Source of the DNA: a virus
DNA length: 64,000 nucleotides
UHGV virus genome: UHGV-0092003
Direction: 5' to 3' (one strand)
The notes below the pieces were generated by a model that did no database searches, was not told where the DNA came from, and was given only the letters and a program-made list of their open reading frames with translations. The position numbers were made by a program, and so were the translations under genes. Below are positions 17,895 through 45,910 of the stretch, piece after piece. The first letter of the stretch is position 1. Every line of letters begins with the position of its first letter.

Positions 17895-17908
17895 CATTAG
17901 ATAAATTG

Positions 17909-17961
17909 TTAGTGGTTACTAACCCTTTGATATCAACGTCTCACAGGTTAGTAACCACTAG
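17909..17961. repeat. 16-bp inverted repeat with nested GGTTAnTAACC palindromes
   Basis: TTAGTGGTTACTAACC ... GGTTAGTAACCACTAG. 15 of 16 positions are complementary. The ~20 bp spacer is not T-rich. Confidence 0.7.
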
Positions 17962-17995
17962 GGGGCTAAATGAAACCCTCTCAAAATGACTCCTG

Positions 17996-18257
17996 ATCGA
18001 AGTCACCGCTGGCGGCATAGTGTACCGCTGACAGCATATCAATTACCGCTGGTAACATACATTGAGCCGCTGACAGCATATCTACAACCGCTGACAGCAT
18101 ACGAAATAAAAAAGCCCTCTATTCGAGGGCTTAAATTTGGTGTGAATAAACGATTCCAGACCTTCCTAATCACCGCTGACAGCATATCTAATAGTCAAAT
18201 CACCGCTGGCAGCATACCATTTGCCGTTCACAGCATATATTGCACCGCTCAGAGCAT
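17996..18257. repeat. iteron array (incA-like), ~9 copies of CCGCTGACAGCATA(T/C) in two sub-clusters
   Basis: Copies at about 17996, 18015, 18037, 18058, 18079, 18171, 18201, 18221, 18243. Spacing is ~21-22 bp. A hairpin (AGCCCTC/GAGGGCT, 18108-18135) separates the sub-clusters. Confidence 0.8.
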
Positions 18258-18258
18258 A

Positions 18259-19371
18259 TCAAAGCAACTTCAGACCGTTACTAAGTATCTCAATTAGCTT
18301 TATATTCTCAGGCGTCAAATCCGCAGAAAGTTCAGCTATCTTCTTGATCATGTTTTGTTTTACGACTTCCAGCTCGCCGTTCTCTTGTGGCCCTTCCACT
18401 TGCTCTGCAGGCTTCTCAGGCTTCGGCGGTTTCTCTTCACCAATGACTTTAAGTTTCGGGTTGCGTCCATGAATCTGAATAAATACAGAGCGACCACGCT
18501 TCACCTCTGAGTAATCGAGGTAGCCAAGCTCTTTAAGAGACTTCAGACCGTTTCGAATGGTCTGATTTTGGGAGCTGATGCTTGCGCTATTCAGATTCAA
18601 CCTCGCACGCAAACGAGCCAGAGATATTGGTGCCGGCCGCGCCGGAAGACTTTCAATGAAGGTGTATAGCGCCTGGGCGGTTTCTTTACGTGGAAGTTTG
18701 TTGATGACCTTCAGCTGGAGAAGAACTTTGTGGTCAAACCGGTATAGCTCTGACAGCTTTGGCTCGGCGTGAAATATGATGGTGTCATTTTTCTCATTGT
18801 AATCCACGCTATTCACCAGATGAACCATGAGCAGAGATATCTTGTTCGAGCCGTCCACGTTCTTCTCTTCGTATGTGCGCTGGAACGAAAGCGTTGTGCG
18901 CATTATCTTCAGCAGGCTGTTTGTAATCCTGTCTCGCAGCGTCTTGCGTATCTGGGAAGATGGATACCCGCAGAACTTGGCAAACTTCGTGATGCTTAGC
19001 TCAACGCGCCCACTGGCCTCCCCATACTCGGCAAGTGATCGGACGACACCAACCCACGTCTTGAAGTCGTGATCCATATCGAGACGTGGCCCGGTTATTT
19101 TGATATCGGAATAACCCTCAGATCTCGCAACCTCCAGTTGCACCAGTTCTTTTGAGGCGTCTATCTGGTTGGAGTTATTTCGTTTACTATTCTTCGTGCC
19201 TTTGAGCGTGGGAACGAACAATCCAAGTCTCATCAACGCAATGGGTTGTACGGTATTGTTGCTGTTCGGGGTGAGGTCGCCTGTGAATAACGCCGGAACA
19301 CTTTCGTCGATCGCGTCATCATCATCGATTAACGGTATGTTTTCTTTCTTCTTTTTTTTGCCTGTGGACAT
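18259..19371 (-). CDS. repA: iteron-binding replication initiator (RepA-like), putative
   Basis: 370 aa minus-strand gene. Flanked on both sides by arrays of the same 15-mer, as in the P1/F replicon layout. N-terminal poly-Lys/acidic region. Product assigned by context only. Confidence 0.55.
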   Translation of the reverse strand: MSTGKKKKKENIPLIDDDDAIDESVPALFTGDLTPNSNNTVQPIALMRLGLFVPTLKGTKNSKRNNSNQIDASKELVQLEVARSEGYSDIKITGPRLDMDHDFKTWVGVVRSLAEYGEASGRVELSITKFAKFCGYPSSQIRKTLRDRITNSLLKIMRTTLSFQRTYEEKNVDGSNKISLLMVHLVNSVDYNEKNDTIIFHAEPKLSELYRFDHKVLLQLKVINKLPRKETAQALYTFIESLPARPAPISLARLRARLNLNSASISSQNQTIRNGLKSLKELGYLDYSEVKRGRSVFIQIHGRNPKLKVIGEEKPPKPEKPAEQVEGPQENGELEVVKQNMIKKIAELSADLTPENIKLIEILSNGLKLL

Positions 19372-19389
19372 GTGGACACCTCATTGCTT

Positions 19390-19494
19390 AAACCGCTGGT
19401 AGCATACTTCATTTGCCGTTAGCAGCATACACAAAACAGTCCACAGCATATCGCACGCCGCTCGCAGCATATATTTTTCCGCTGACAGCATACG
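19390..19494. repeat. iteron array (incC/origin-like), 5 copies of the same 15-mer family
   Basis: ACCGCTGGTAGCATAC, GCCGTTAGCAGCATAC, CACAGCATAT, CCGCTCGCAGCATAT, CCGCTGACAGCATAC. Lies immediately upstream of the rep start codon. Confidence 0.8.
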
Positions 19495-19529
19495 CCAATG
19501 GTCTTTCAGAGCAGGCGTGGCGCGGGTTG

Positions 19530-19620
19530 CGAGGATCGGGGATCTCTTTTGATCTCATATATGATCTATATAGGGATCTTATTATTGGGATCTATCCAGT
19601 TGATATGTGGATAACTTTTC
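19530..19620. other. oriC-like DNA unwinding element: six GATC-initiated 13-mer-like repeats plus a consensus DnaA box
   Basis: GATC at 19534, 19541, 19551, 19563, 19575, 19589 (GATCTCTTTTGAT, GATCTCATATATG, GATCTATATAGGG, GATCTTATTATTG, GATCTATCC). TGTGGATAA at 19606-19614 is a perfect TTATCCACA on the opposite strand. Confidence 0.7.
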
Positions 19621-19687
19621 AAGGCATTTTAGTACGTGAGCCTTGTTTTTGGTTTAATGTGATAAAAAATACAAGGCCAAGCATCAA

Positions 19688-20335
19688 ATGAATATCAAAC
19701 AGTCGCGTTACATCAGAAGACTTGAAGATGGGACTTACACCATCAAGCCTGACTCTAAACTGGTTGCTTCCAGGGACATGTGTGAGGTTTGCGGCATCAA
19801 AACCGCCTGCCCGATCTACAAGACTCGGGCATCACTGCTGGAACAGGGAGCGTCATTTGAAATCAATACATGCAAACGATACGTCCCGCTCATCTCCTTC
19901 AGAAAACCTTATCTTGGTTTAAAGGAGGCATACTTCAACACAATGCGCAGCGGCGTAACCTGGGTCAACCGCGTTAGTGAAAATTCTATTGTTTGCCTGG
20001 TTGGTGCTGAGAACGGTGAGATCATACGCTTTGCGCGCGTCGCAAAGGTGTTCTCTGGCCCCGTCGACAAAATGCTCAAGATAAACGCCAGGTTCAACCA
20101 TCTATGTCTCGGCGGAAAAACTCAGGACGAGGTAAAAACTGTTATCCAAAAGTCATACGGCCACTTCCTGAAAGAAGACAGCTTGCTGACGGTAATCTAC
20201 CTGAAGAGTCTAAAGCACGAGCACGATTGGGAATATCACACCGAAGAAGAAATTCGAATGATGGAGGACGTCACCCCGCCAGATAACGTCGTGAGTCTCG
20301 ATGAGTTAAGACGTAGATTCGAAGAGAAGATTTAA
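19688..20335 (+). CDS. hypothetical protein with CxxC...CP zinc-finger-like motif
   Basis: 215 aa. CEVCGIKTACP. Immediately adjacent to the origin. Confidence 0.5.
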   Translation: MNIKQSRYIRRLEDGTYTIKPDSKLVASRDMCEVCGIKTACPIYKTRASLLEQGASFEINTCKRYVPLISFRKPYLGLKEAYFNTMRSGVTWVNRVSENSIVCLVGAENGEIIRFARVAKVFSGPVDKMLKINARFNHLCLGGKTQDEVKTVIQKSYGHFLKEDSLLTVIYLKSLKHEHDWEYHTEEEIRMMEDVTPPDNVVSLDELRRRFEEKI

Positions 20336-20557: not shown

Positions 20558-20938
20558 ATGGAAGATAAAGAAATAGAGTTTTATCGTAATGGTAATGTGA
20601 GTATCACTAACGCTCGTTTTATGGTAGGCAGCACGACTTACGCTATGCATGGTGTTACGTCAGTAAAGCGCGGAGAAAAGATTCCATCCAAGGTTGGCCC
20701 AATTATTACTGGCATCATTGGTATCTTAATGATTTTCTTAGCAGCTACGCTGATGTTTAAAGCAATCGGTGTACTGGTCGTTCTCTTTGCCATCTTCTGG
20801 TTCAAGGGCCTCAAAACAGAATATCTTGTCTTTTTAAATAGCGCTTCTGGTGAGTCCCAAGCCTTAACCAGTACGGATAAAAGCTACATCGATAGCGTTA
20901 TCCACCACCTCAACGAAGCTATTATCCACAGAGGTTAA
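20558..20938 (+). CDS. small inner-membrane protein (two TM helices), moron-like
   Basis: 126 aa. Sits in an AT-rich island with its own AT-rich promoter region (20400-20557). Preceded by a terminator hairpin GCCCCTC/GAGGGGC at ~20349-20385. Confidence 0.5.
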   Translation: MEDKEIEFYRNGNVSITNARFMVGSTTYAMHGVTSVKRGEKIPSKVGPIITGIIGILMIFLAATLMFKAIGVLVVLFAIFWFKGLKTEYLVFLNSASGESQALTSTDKSYIDSVIHHLNEAIIHRG

Positions 20939-21146: not shown

Positions 21147-22232
21147 ATGAAAACGATATACGGTGTGATTTCAGACCCACACTATCATAGCTGGTCTGCG
21201 TTCTCGACAATCAGCGTCAGCGGTCTGAATTCTCGTTTAAAAATTCAGCTCGATGCAACCATCGAGGCGGCAAAAGCGATCAAAGCTTCTGGCGCAAAAT
21301 ACATGTTTGTTGCTGGCGACACATTCCATACGCGCGGCTCAATCACCCCTTCCGTGCTCCACTTCGTCACTGAAACGTACAAAACCATTGTTAACGAAAT
21401 CGGTCTGGAAGTCTGGATGCTGGCCGGCAACCACGACCTGGAAACCAATGACTCAGTATTTTCGGCAAATGCGGCGGCATCATTGCAGTCGATTGGCGTA
21501 AATATCGTCTGTGGCCCGGCACAGAGCGTGAAAATTGATGATGTAACAGTCCACTTTATCAGCTGGCGTAACAGTCATGCCGAATTGCTGGCGGATATGA
21601 AATCTCTTCGTGAGAAAGCTGGCCCAGGCATTCACGACATTGTGATCCACACAGGCATCAACAAAGCCATACCGACAATGCCAGACGTAGGGATTGAGGC
21701 AAACGATCTGAAGGAACTCGGTTTTCGTCTTGTGCTCTCCGGCCACTATCACAATCACAAAGAGATAATTCCCGGCGTCGTGTCAGTCGGTGCGTTAACT
21801 CACCAGAATTGGGGCGACGTTGGTACGTTGGCCGGGTTCATGTTGGTTCAGGAAGACGGTTCATTCACGCAGCACGAAACATCGGCACCGAAGTTTGTAT
21901 CTCTGGAAGGCGATGTGACTGAAGACGATATTCGCGGCAATTATGTTCGCTATCGCGCAGTCATTCAGAACGACGCTGAGGCAGTGCAAATAAAAGAGCA
22001 ACTGGCGACGCTGGGTGCCGCGGGCGTTGTGACAAATCTCATCAAAAAAGCGTCGATGATGGCTGGAACTGCAAGCACCGAATCCACCAGCAAAATCGAC
22101 AGTCTCTCTGAATCAATCAGTGCCTACTGCAAGGTTGTCCACGATACGGATGGCGGCTTCGATCTGGCTAAGCTCGACTCACTATGCAACGAAATCCTAT
22201 TAGAAGCGGAAAGCGCGGGGACGTCTGAATGA
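21147..22232 (+). CDS. sbcD: SbcD/Mre11-like nuclease (calcineurin-like phosphoesterase)
   Basis: 361 aa. Motifs DPH, GDTFH, GNHD, GHYH in canonical order. Confidence 0.85.
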   Translation: MKTIYGVISDPHYHSWSAFSTISVSGLNSRLKIQLDATIEAAKAIKASGAKYMFVAGDTFHTRGSITPSVLHFVTETYKTIVNEIGLEVWMLAGNHDLETNDSVFSANAAASLQSIGVNIVCGPAQSVKIDDVTVHFISWRNSHAELLADMKSLREKAGPGIHDIVIHTGINKAIPTMPDVGIEANDLKELGFRLVLSGHYHNHKEIIPGVVSVGALTHQNWGDVGTLAGFMLVQEDGSFTQHETSAPKFVSLEGDVTEDDIRGNYVRYRAVIQNDAEAVQIKEQLATLGAAGVVTNLIKKASMMAGTASTESTSKIDSLSESISAYCKVVHDTDGGFDLAKLDSLCNEILLEAESAGTSE

Positions 22233-24145
22233 AATTCCTAAATCTGAAAGTTGAAAACTTTATGGTCATTGCCGAGGCGAGTGTCGATCTGGACAATCGC
22301 GGTCTGGTGCTGATTCAGGGCATTAACGCCGCTGACTCCAGTGCCGCGAGTAATGGCGCCGGCAAATCCACGCTGATGAATGCTTTGATGTGGTGTTTGT
22401 ACGGGGAGACTGCCACTGGATATAAGGGTGATGACGTTCTGAACTCAACGACGCCAAAGAACTGCCGCGTTTCCGTGACCATTGAAGACGAAGGTAAGCA
22501 ATATGCGGTAATTCGTCACCGCGCTCACAAAGAATTCAAAAATCGTCTCATTGTCCGCAGTGAAGACGGTGATTTGACCAAAGGCAAGGACACGCTGACT
22601 CAGGAACTGGTTGAGCGGCTGATCGGCTCTTCGAAAGAAGTATTCATGGCATCCATCTATGCCAGTCAGGAAGCTATGCCGGATTTGCCAGGCATGACGG
22701 ATAAAAATTTGAAGGCGATTGTTGAAGAAGCCGCTGGCATCGACCGTCTGACAAAGGCTTATGCTATCGCCCGCGACAGAGCTAATGCGATGAGCGCTCG
22801 ACTCGACAGAGCCAACGCTCAGGCTGAAAGCACAGTATCGCTTATCACTTCAACAGAGACGGAGATTGAGACCAGTACAGCCGCTGCCGAGGCGTGGGAG
22901 AGAGCACGTTCCGTTAGGCTCGATGAAGCACGAGCCGAAGCGACTCTGATCGAAGTCAAGGTAACGGAGGCCAGCATGGAAATGGCCGACATCCCGGCCA
23001 CCATCAACAAAATTGAGAACCAAATCACGGATGAAAAGAAAAAGCTTTCCGGTAGGGCTGAGCATGATAAGAAAGTTCAGGCAGCGAACACAATGGTGGC
23101 TGATGCAGCGGCGGAGATCCGAGCGACTGAATCAGCTCGCGACAGAGCCATTAGCGCAGCAAAAAAAGCCAAGCTGAATGCGGATAATGTCAATTCAAGC
23201 GTAGGCAAACCATGCTCGACGTGCGGCAAGCCATACACCAGCGATGATCTGTCTCATGTTCACGATAACTACGTCGGCGAAGTCCGCAAGTATGTAGACG
23301 AAGCTAAATCACTAACAGCGGATTTAGCGGCCAAAACTGAGCGTCACGATAAAATCGTCGTGCTGCGTGATCGTCTTGTTGCGTCGACCCCCGACGTCTC
23401 CGCAATCACTGAGCGCATTTCTGAGCTTACCCGCAGTCTGGGTAACGTAAAGTCACGGCAAGTCGAAATAAAAGCGGCAGAGAGCGCTCTGGCTCGCGCA
23501 AACGCACAAGTTAAAGCGATCTCAGAAGAAGCCAACCCTCACAATGCAGCTATTTCCCGTCATCGCGAAAATCTGGCAATGCACAAAGAAAAGCTGAAAG
23601 AGATCCGACGCGAAATCGAAGGGATGAAAGATCAGGCACTGCTGCTTGAGAAGGCGCGTCAGGTTTACTCTCCGGCCGGAGTTCGTTCACATATTCTGAC
23701 GGCGGTAACACCATTCCTGAACGATAAAACGGCGGAATATCTGAGCACGATGTCGGACGGCAACATCTCTGCCATCTGGTCGACGATGGATACCACGAAG
23801 AAAGGAGAGATCCGCGACAAATTCAACATTGCCGTTGAGAAGACCGGATTCAGTAAAGACTTCCGCGGTCTGTCCGGTGGTGAAAAGCGGAAAGTGCGTC
23901 TGGCTTGTGCGCTGGCTCTTCAGGATATGGTCGCGAACCGGGCCAGCAAAAGCATTCAGTTGTTTATCGGCGATGAGATCGATGATGCACTGGATTCGGC
24001 GGGACTTGAGCGTCTGATGGGGATTCTGGAAGCGAAGGCGCGTGAGCGTGGTACGGTGATGATCGTCTCGCACAAGGAGATGAAGTCGTGGTTCCGCGAA
24101 ACGGTGACGCTGGAAGTCAAAGAGGGCCGCAGCTATGTCGTTTAA
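22229..24145 (+). CDS. sbcC: SbcC/Rad50-like SMC ATPase
   Basis: 638 aa. Walker A NGAGKST. Long coiled coil with central CxxC zinc hook (KPCSTCGKPY). ABC signature LSGGEKRKVRLA. Walker B FIGDEIDDALD. Confidence 0.85.
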   Translation: MKFLNLKVENFMVIAEASVDLDNRGLVLIQGINAADSSAASNGAGKSTLMNALMWCLYGETATGYKGDDVLNSTTPKNCRVSVTIEDEGKQYAVIRHRAHKEFKNRLIVRSEDGDLTKGKDTLTQELVERLIGSSKEVFMASIYASQEAMPDLPGMTDKNLKAIVEEAAGIDRLTKAYAIARDRANAMSARLDRANAQAESTVSLITSTETEIETSTAAAEAWERARSVRLDEARAEATLIEVKVTEASMEMADIPATINKIENQITDEKKKLSGRAEHDKKVQAANTMVADAAAEIRATESARDRAISAAKKAKLNADNVNSSVGKPCSTCGKPYTSDDLSHVHDNYVGEVRKYVDEAKSLTADLAAKTERHDKIVVLRDRLVASTPDVSAITERISELTRSLGNVKSRQVEIKAAESALARANAQVKAISEEANPHNAAISRHRENLAMHKEKLKEIRREIEGMKDQALLLEKARQVYSPAGVRSHILTAVTPFLNDKTAEYLSTMSDGNISAIWSTMDTTKKGEIRDKFNIAVEKTGFSKDFRGLSGGEKRKVRLACALALQDMVANRASKSIQLFIGDEIDDALDSAGLERLMGILEAKARERGTVMIVSHKEMKSWFRETVTLEVKEGRSYVV

Positions 24146-35758: not shown

Positions 35759-35926
35759 AACGTTGCAGAAAAGCCCCTCGTGGGCTTTTTTGTCTAACTA
35801 GTACCATCGCACCACCAACACCAAGAAAATGCGATCCCTTCCTTTCTATGGCTGATCCCGATGTATTCGTCTTGTTAGTTCTCTCTAACTCTGTAAAATA
35901 AGTAAATGTTTACCTATTGGTGTGGT

Positions 35927-36559
35927 ATGAACGGATCTCAGAAAATTAAAAAACGTGAGCGCGACGGCAACTTGCGCGATCTCTGGAGAACGCCTCTGTG
36001 GTTATTTCGCGCCATTGAGGTTTATCTGGGAGTGAAGTTTCAGGTTGATGTCGCGTGCAACAAAGATAACGCGATCCTGCCTGATTTTATAGGCGTCGAG
36101 CGTGACGCGCTGAAGTCGAGCTGGGGAGAGCCTGGTACTGTGGCATTCCTGAACCCGCCCTATTCCAAAATCAAACCATGGATAGACGCCGCGGCGCGTG
36201 AACAAGCCAATGGCGTTACGACCGTCATGCTTGTCCCTCAGTCCCTCGACACTCAGTGGTATCTGGACGTTAAGCGCAGCGCGAATCAGACCGTGCTTAT
36301 TGTTGGCGGTCGCGTCGCTTTCATGGAGCCAGACACAGCGCTGGGATTGGTTGAAGTACGCGAGAATACTGGCGGCAGCATGTTGCTGGTCTTCCGGGGC
36401 TTCTGTGGCGCTGCTGGACACCAGACGACGGAGATCGACATCGGCGTGATGAAATTGTTGGGTGGCTATGATCCACTAACGGCGAAACGGAAGCCACGTA
36501 AGAAGCCTGTTAAGAAAGCATCTCCACCCCTTAATAAAAAGACTTTAAAAGCGCTTTAA
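35927..36559 (+). CDS. phage Dam-family N6-adenine DNA methyltransferase
   Basis: LWRTPLWLFRAIEVY and VAFLNPPYSKIKPWI (motif IV NPPY). The short overall architecture fits the small phage Dam family. ATG 35927 is preferred to the track start at 35906. Confidence 0.75.
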   Translation: MNGSQKIKKRERDGNLRDLWRTPLWLFRAIEVYLGVKFQVDVACNKDNAILPDFIGVERDALKSSWGEPGTVAFLNPPYSKIKPWIDAAAREQANGVTTVMLVPQSLDTQWYLDVKRSANQTVLIVGGRVAFMEPDTALGLVEVRENTGGSMLLVFRGFCGAAGHQTTEIDIGVMKLLGGYDPLTAKRKPRKKPVKKASPPLNKKTLKAL

Positions 36560-45298: not shown

Positions 45299-45910
45299 AT
45301 GAAAATAAAAAATTTTGGCATCGTTGCAATACTTTTTCTGGCTTCAGGTTGTAATGATGTTGCCGTTAAACCATATGAGATGGTGCTCAACAAAACACCA
45401 TCTCAGGTGGATATGGCAGGTTATACGATGGTTGATCAGGACGGGAAGGCAACGGACAAACCAGTCAAAGCCAAGGATCGTTTTTCTCAGTATCTATACG
45501 CACCATCAGAATACGTAGGCAAAGTCCTCAAGGAAGAGAAAGACCCAGATTTAGTCATCTTTAACACATTAGACGGGAAAATTGCGTACTCCATCGTCAA
45601 TGTGAGTGTGGATAAGATGAAGACGGTGCAGGACGTGCTGAAAAGTAAATATGGCCCGGCTCTGGCGACTCGCGCTGGCGTGAGAGATAAAGCCGCTTTC
45701 GAGTCAAGTCCAGGCTTCTGTAAAGCGTACAATTCAGAAGCAGGGTTAGAACAGAACCACTGCCCTATGGACTATTACGAAATTTACGGCACTGTAGATG
45801 AGGCATATGTGCTGGTTAAGGCTAAAAGCATCTACGCTAACGGCCCTGTGAAGTTGATGGTGGCAGGAATAACCAGAGACGCAAAAAACTACTTGGACAG
45901 CATTAAGTAA
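45299..45910 (+). CDS. lipoprotein, hypothetical
   Basis: 203 aa. Signal plus lipobox LASGC. Confidence 0.5.
   Translation: MKIKNFGIVAILFLASGCNDVAVKPYEMVLNKTPSQVDMAGYTMVDQDGKATDKPVKAKDRFSQYLYAPSEYVGKVLKEEKDPDLVIFNTLDGKIAYSIVNVSVDKMKTVQDVLKSKYGPALATRAGVRDKAAFESSPGFCKAYNSEAGLEQNHCPMDYYEIYGTVDEAYVLVKAKSIYANGPVKLMVAGITRDAKNYLDSIK

Follow-up and report, generated by a model that had tools for sequence, protein, structure and literature searches.

The window (the whole 64,000-nt stretch of viral DNA analysed here) contains a replication region which, read from right to left, consists of a DnaA box, an A+T-rich block carrying clustered GATC sites, a G+C-rich spacer, five iterons, the repA gene and nine further iterons. 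The repA gene (18259–19371, minus strand) is predicted to specify a 370-aa iteron-binding initiator with a Rep3_N winged-helix domain (PF01051, 3.6e-09), and near-identical plasmids annotate this rep gene as 'RepB family' or 'RepFIB replication protein A'. The last ~60 residues of the protein (residues ~310–370, encoded at 18259–18440) form a C-terminal extension that is proline- and glutamate-rich, then helical-looking. This extension is missing in the RepA of P1 (286 aa); the RepA of pKPHS1 aligns across it, while that of SSU5 (354 aa) also exceeds the P1 protein in length, its alignment ending at residue 308. Directly to the right of the origin lies an ORF (19688–20335) specifying a 215-aa product with a cysteine-rich N-terminus. 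This product gave no Pfam match, and neither it nor RepA matched any NCBIfam model. An ORF similar in size and position, compared without alignment, occupies the same place in SSU5-, pMT1- and E. coli pSCMY1-like elements.

The five direct iterons beside repA (19389–19495, plus strand) share the core CCGCTGACAGCATA and are spaced 21–23 bp start to start, the weakest being the fifth copy, at ~19433. They are predicted to act as the origin's counterpart of incC, bound by RepA, and the repA promoter, together with its autoregulation, is presumed to lie within them. Since a scan of positions 17900–19750 for the sigma-70 consensus returned no sites (3.2 were expected from shuffles), and therefore none in the iteron array, the promoter and the autoregulatory site were not located. 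Directly downstream of repA, nine iterons (18002–18261, plus strand) form an incA-like array, with a predicted role in copy-number control. All 14 iterons are in a single orientation, and none contains a GATC. On the minus strand, a terminator-like hairpin (18112–18132) was seen where a 64-bp gap separates downstream iterons five and six. To the left of the incA-like array lies a perfect 15-nt inverted repeat (17910–17924, TAGTGGTTACTAACC, and 17946–17960, GGTTAGTAACCACTA, with a 21-nt gap), a possible terminator or binding site for a protein. Two overlapping, weak DnaA-box-like 9-mers, TGTGGACAT and TGTGGACAC, with two mismatches each, span the start codon of repA (19363–19379, minus strand). 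They sit where P1 and P7 bear a second DnaA-box-like set, between repA and the iterons, and are only tentatively assigned to the origin.

The five origin iterons are separated from the GATC block by a G+C-rich spacer (19496–19533) containing the sequence GGCGTGGCGCGG; this spacer is kept in P1, P7 and pKPHS1. The G+C content of positions 19496–19540 is 64%, and the most stable 20-bp step of the origin region falls inside this spacer. The block that follows (19534–19605), A+T-rich and homologous to the Dam-site repeats of the P1 oriR, is presumed from that homology to be both a duplex-unwinding element and a SeqA target. It contains six phased GATC (Dam) sites, starting at 19534, 19541, 19551, 19563, 19575 and 19589, which together span 59 bp (19534–19592) with start-to-start distances of 7, 10, 12, 12 and 14 bp. 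On the plus strand, positions 19534–19614 read GATCGGG, followed by GATCTCTTTT, GATCTCATATAT, GATCTATATAGG, GATCTTATTATTGG, GATCTATCCAGTTGATA and TGTGGATAA. The latter (19606–19614) represents, on the minus strand, a DnaA box without mismatches, TTATCCACA; it begins 17 nt past the start of the last GATC and matches the perfect box at the outer end of the P1/P7 oriR. The A+T content of positions 19541–19605 is 69%. The GATC block is the 60-bp duplex of lowest stability within 19301–19700, and lies at the 99.5th percentile for low duplex stability across the whole window.

The clustering of GATC sites is well beyond chance. The whole window contains 267 of them (about one per 240 bp), and the runner-up 70-bp stretch for GATC density holds three. 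When 200 windows were simulated with a first-order Markov model, none contained six GATC within 60 bp (a single simulation reached five, the highest count), and the Poisson bound for a six-site cluster was ∼0.018 per window. The feature on which the original prediction was built, i.e. six GATC followed by a perfect DnaA box, is thus real and was recovered at the same coordinates. The general form given for the repeats was GATCTnTTnTT; five of the six sites read GATCT and the first reads GATCG. Only five repeats had been written out, the last of them shortened. Within the intergenic origin region (19372–19687), the box at 19606–19614 is the single DnaA-box site with at most one mismatch; a one-mismatch site is present at 19282, inside repA. 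Two other perfect DnaA boxes occur elsewhere in the window (20922–20930, plus strand, and 45607–45615, minus strand), which makes three per 64 kb against ∼0.5 expected (128,000 positions/4^9). No match to the IHF consensus WATCAANNNNTTR was found within 19200–19800. The GC skew calculated across the whole window showed no inflection at 19.5 kb, a result that is uninformative rather than contrary.

The cluster had been proposed to mimic the unwinding element of E. coli oriC, its repeats closely resembling the oriC 13-mers. The layout is indeed alike: at the left end of oriC, GATCT-headed, A+T-rich repeats are followed by TGTGGATAA on the same strand, as in the window. In the MG1655 oriC, the GATC-headed repeats are found at 95, 111, 126 and 139, with the R1 box TGTGGATAA 13 nt past the last GATC, and the density of GATC is high, as it is in the window core. 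The repeats are, however, spaced 13–16 bp in oriC and 10–14 bp in the window, and the six 13-mers agree with the oriC consensus GATCTnTTnTTTT at 6–9 of the 11 specified positions, which is only a moderate resemblance. When positions 19530–19620 were locally aligned, the score was 77 against P1 and 25 against the MG1655 oriC, while shuffles gave 18.1 ± 2.5 (maximum 30); no significant similarity to oriC was therefore detected. Since this alignment is no better than those obtained with shuffles, the likeness lies in motif type and layout, not in sequence, and the relation between the core and oriC is one of analogy, not of family membership. That the P1 core resembles the 13-mers of oriC was already recognized in the 1990s.

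These comparisons also bear on whether the segment might function on its own as an oriC-like origin, or be a part of a host oriC that was captured, fired by DnaA alone with no plasmid initiator. The repeats and the TGTGGATAA box do stand in the order and orientation seen at the left end of oriC, yet such an origin is extremely improbable. The alignment score against oriC stays below the shuffle maximum, and a single strong DnaA box is present, set against the twelve DnaA-binding sites described for oriC (PMC5716108), so that neither homology to oriC nor multiple DnaA boxes were found. oriC has numerous sites for DnaA and works without a Rep protein; in the window, one strong box is accompanied by RepA. 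Moreover, a RepA homologue and iterons always accompany the core, which is homologous to the oriR of P1.

This last relationship was evident in a sensitive blastn search with positions 19372–19690 as the query: a 103-bp segment (19512–19614) was 79.8% identical to the oriR of both P1 and P7 (E = 4e-13). The aligned stretch of P1/P7 is annotated as oriR, with Dam methylation sites 1–5 and a DnaA binding site, and the 'protein_bind DnaA' annotation of P7 falls on the position aligned with the 19606–19614 box. In BLASTP comparisons with the P1 and P7 initiators, RepA showed 49% identity across the full P1 protein, with an E value of 6e-90 against P7. The window thus holds all the parts of a P1-type origin: a RepA homologue, two iteron arrays, a homologous GATC core with its G+C-rich stretch, and the outer DnaA box. 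The modules are in the same order as in P1, where repA also lies on the opposite strand, and a base-by-base comparison with P1 showed the G+C-rich spacer, five of the six GATC and the terminal TGTGGATAA to be shared. The annotation of P7 lists five incC iterons in its origin and nine incA iterons past repA, numbers that equal those of the window. The segment is therefore very probably a P1-type oriR core, acting as the plasmid-prophage origin of a ∼110-kb Klebsiella phage-plasmid of the SSU5/pKPHS1 kind. It is neither a copy nor a new mimic of oriC, but a relative of the P1 origin.

The differences from the P1 oriR are minor. P1 has five GATC where the window has six, with GGACCT at the place of the window's fifth site. 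It also bears two tandem DnaA boxes, whereas the window has one strong box; the upstream box of P1, AGTGGATAA, is degenerate in the window, where it reads AGTTGATAT (19597–19605). The iterons differ in sequence (CCCTCCAGCACACATC in P1, CCGCTGACAGCATA in the window), which makes a different RepA specificity likely. According to the P7 annotation, its iterons are in mixed orientations, whereas those of the window are uniform. The remaining genome is SSU5-like, not P1-like.

The closest relatives of the replicon were found among Klebsiella plasmids. The best 23 matches to positions 17900–19720 were plasmids of 107.7–115.6 kb from Klebsiella pneumoniae, K. oxytoca and K. quasipneumoniae, with 98.7–99.6% identity; all 23 were typed as non-mobilizable. 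These plasmids are members of the SSU5/pKPHS1 phage-plasmid group. Within the SSU5, pHCM2, pMT1 and pKPHS1 group, replicons are typed as 'IncFIB', 'IncpKPHS1' or rep_cluster_2469, and all have a six-GATC core, as does the window. RepA is 79% identical to the RepA of pKPHS1 and 51% identical to that of SSU5, and the iteron core of pKPHS1 is identical to that of the window (CCGCTGACAGCATA). The iterons of the branch containing SSU5, pMT1 and Kluyvera elements (five loci) are CCCCATAGTGGATAG-like, unlike those of the window. The distance from the core to repA also varies, being ∼600 bp in the SSU5/pMT1 branch, ∼260 bp in P1 and Pantoea replicons, and ∼165 bp in the window. A replicon typed 'IncFIB' proved to be another SSU5-like replicon. 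A 2026 preprint on phage-plasmid heteroresistance dealt with a CopA/CopT-regulated RepA, irrelevant to the replicon of the window. Relatives of these Klebsiella phage-plasmids have been reported to carry antibiotic-resistance genes (PMC9600943).

To determine how widely the core is conserved, public genomes and viral contigs were scanned with the pattern GATCNGGGATCTNNNNNGATCT, which fixes only the first three GATC. The scan, together with earlier database matches, provided 251 matches outside the window. At least five GATC within 75–80 bp were present in 178 of them, and in 160 of these 178 the compared DNA contained a RepA homologue (40–99% identity), always on the opposite strand and 163–667 bp from the core. 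In contrast, no RepA homologue accompanied any of the other 73 matches, in which only three or four GATC were present and which served as an internal negative control; these are chance matches in unrelated genomes, ∼70 of them in GC-rich ones. The linkage between core and RepA is therefore strict. Eighty unique A+T-rich cores were then compared. All six phased GATC were present in 50 of them and five in another 19, and across the set the distances between consecutive GATC were 10, then 10–12, 10–13 and 11–15 bp. The four variable spacers, however, showed 9–24 distinct sequences each. A DnaA box with at most one mismatch and in the same orientation was found just past the last GATC in 52 of the 80. 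Since the GATC positions are kept while the spacers vary, and the box is kept as well, the GATC sites and the DnaA box are under selection and tied to the RepA family.

The carriers include P1-like, SSU5-like and pKPHS1-like phage-plasmids, and pMT1 of Yersinia pestis. The core was also seen in 0.3–1 Mb Pantoea and Erwinia contigs and in 0.45–0.83 Mb plasmids, in an 828-kb plasmid of Enterobacter ludwigii and a 953-kb plasmid of Pseudomonas silvicola, and in a 14.6-kb plasmid of the stink-bug symbiont Candidatus Pantoea carbekii. The RepA homologues beside the six-GATC cores of these bacterial replicons showed 46–55% identity. Given its occurrence in replicons of Pantoea, Erwinia, Enterobacter and Pseudomonas, this origin type is not confined to phage-plasmids. 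From P1 to the SSU5-like phages to the Pantoea megaplasmids, the core is ∼80% identical, whereas RepA (46–55%) and the iterons have diverged. The GATC core, the G+C-rich spacer and the DnaA box may be a conserved module through which the replicon engages host factors. Were this so, selection on the module would come from the Dam, SeqA and DnaA of the host and not from the initiator of the plasmid.

The same survey helps in judging two other roles for the GATC cluster. The pac site of P1 holds clustered Dam sites, and clustered GATC regulate its cleavage; the phage-plasmid of the window encodes a Dam-family methyltransferase of its own. The cluster might then be a methylation-regulated packaging site, or some other element of the lytic cycle, and not a plasmid origin. 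The likelihood of this is close to negligible: the core aligns with the oriR of P1 and not with its pac, it keeps the same place and direction with respect to repA wherever it occurs, and it is present in replicons far above or below the size of a phage genome, namely the 0.3–1 Mb contigs, the 0.45–0.83 Mb plasmids and the 14.6-kb plasmid. Alternatively, the sites might mainly serve as a transcriptional switch for the divergent repA gene and ORF 19688–20335, methylation being incidental to initiation. The cluster does sit in the divergent intergenic region, and Dam and SeqA modulate transcription at other loci. A switch of this kind is nevertheless very unlikely, since iterons intervene between the cluster and repA, and the right-hand ORF is not kept beside the core in P1 or Pantoea replicons while the GATC phasing is. 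In addition, methylation is essential for replication itself at the homologous P1 origin (PMC2865523). An oriR core of the P1 type remains the preferred reading.

With this core as the origin, a mode of action can be proposed by homology with P1. RepA monomers would bind the five iterons at 19389–19495, and host DnaA would bind at 19606–19614, on the far side of the A+T-rich block. RepA and DnaA, probably together with HU, would then open the GATC block (19541–19605), allowing the host helicase to be loaded. Origin firing would need Dam methylation of the six GATC sites. After replication, the sites would be hemimethylated, and their spacing of about one turn (10–14 bp) would suit the cooperative binding of SeqA, delaying refiring. 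The nine downstream iterons (18002–18261) would limit the copy number, as incA does in P1, by titrating RepA or through "handcuffing", in which they would pair with the iterons of the origin. The anatomy of the sequence, its homology to the oriR and RepA of P1, the kept GATC positions and the linkage of the core to RepA are observed directly. The binding steps, the opening, the need for methylation and the sequestration are all properties that we infer from P1; the functional statements are carried over from a plasmid with different iterons and a RepA of only 49% identity. In P1-class origins, DnaA has an accessory role, and Park et al. are said to have mapped, in 1998, the opening of the P1 origin to the GATC repeats themselves. 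The P1 oriR uses the host's Dam in E. coli, and Klebsiella also possesses Dam.

Several published observations concern these steps. Methylation of the origin is essential for the replication of plasmids P1 and ColV-K30; the reason for this need is unexplained, and a role in initiator binding is unlikely because the iterons lack GATC (PMC2865523). P1 has two arrays of DnaA boxes, and the in vivo KMnO4 reactivity of its origin is lower without HU (PMC4980987). Brendler et al. reported that SeqA binds both the core of the P1 origin and the 13-mer region of oriC. Initiation dependent on DnaA and Dam, with probable SeqA sequestration, had been part of the original prediction. It is probably right, by homology with P1 only: from the P1 core homology and the P1 literature, a DnaA- and Dam-dependent, SeqA-bound, A+T-rich unwinding element would be expected. 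The prediction had, however, omitted the principal initiator, RepA, and its iterons, even though the repA–iteron unit lies within 40 bp of the GATC feature.

A further iteron-type origin that invites comparison is ori2 of Vibrio cholerae, initiated by RctB, which has a DnaA box, needs Dam methylation and is sequestered by SeqA (PMC2865523, PMC6090056). In ori2, the GATC lie inside the initiator sites, and methylation is required for RctB binding. The window and P1 differ from ori2 in that their iterons have no GATC, the sites being located in the A+T-rich block.

It had also been suggested that the phage's own Dam-like enzyme could keep the origin sites methylated. The gene is present: it encodes a Dam-family methyltransferase (PF05869, TIGR01712), its longest ORF (35906–36559) starting 21 nt upstream of the 35927 start first assigned, and the product shares 74% identity with its SSU5 counterpart and ∼36% with the methyltransferases encoded by Stx phages. 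That this enzyme maintains the methylation of the origin GATC is speculation, and it seems rather unlikely that it acts on the six-GATC core so as to tune the refiring of the origin. If it did, rapid remethylation upon induction would override SeqA sequestration, and the occasional replication of the plasmid would give way to rapid refiring.

The paper that defines IncpKPHS1 describes only four iterons, downstream of repA, and mentions neither DnaA nor GATC (PMC6735626); the core of the origin in this lineage therefore seems to be absent from that account. The present analysis extends that description, providing a confident, base-level annotation of the origin (core, spacer, iterons, repA and copy-control array) for a common family of ∼110-kb Klebsiella phage-plasmids, which may be used in building minireplicons, predicting incompatibility and interpreting copy-number mutants. 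It brings no new mechanism, since the link between GATC, DnaA, SeqA and Dam at such origins was established for P1 decades ago. The origin found here has the usual core of a type already known, and its detailed annotation is useful, if unsurprising.

The genes flanking the origin, i.e. the 215-aa ORF, a metallophosphoesterase gene and a gene for an SMC-like ATPase, are syntenic in the relatives. In the window, the latter two lie to the right of the origin (21147–24145) and encode a 361-aa metallophosphoesterase (PF00149) followed by a 638-aa protein. They can be read as a putative SbcCD/Mre11–Rad50-like pair. The metallophosphoesterase is annotated at the corresponding place in four relatives; the ATPase gene was seen in one near-identical plasmid alone, in which the 638-aa protein is labelled 'Chromosome partition protein Smc'.
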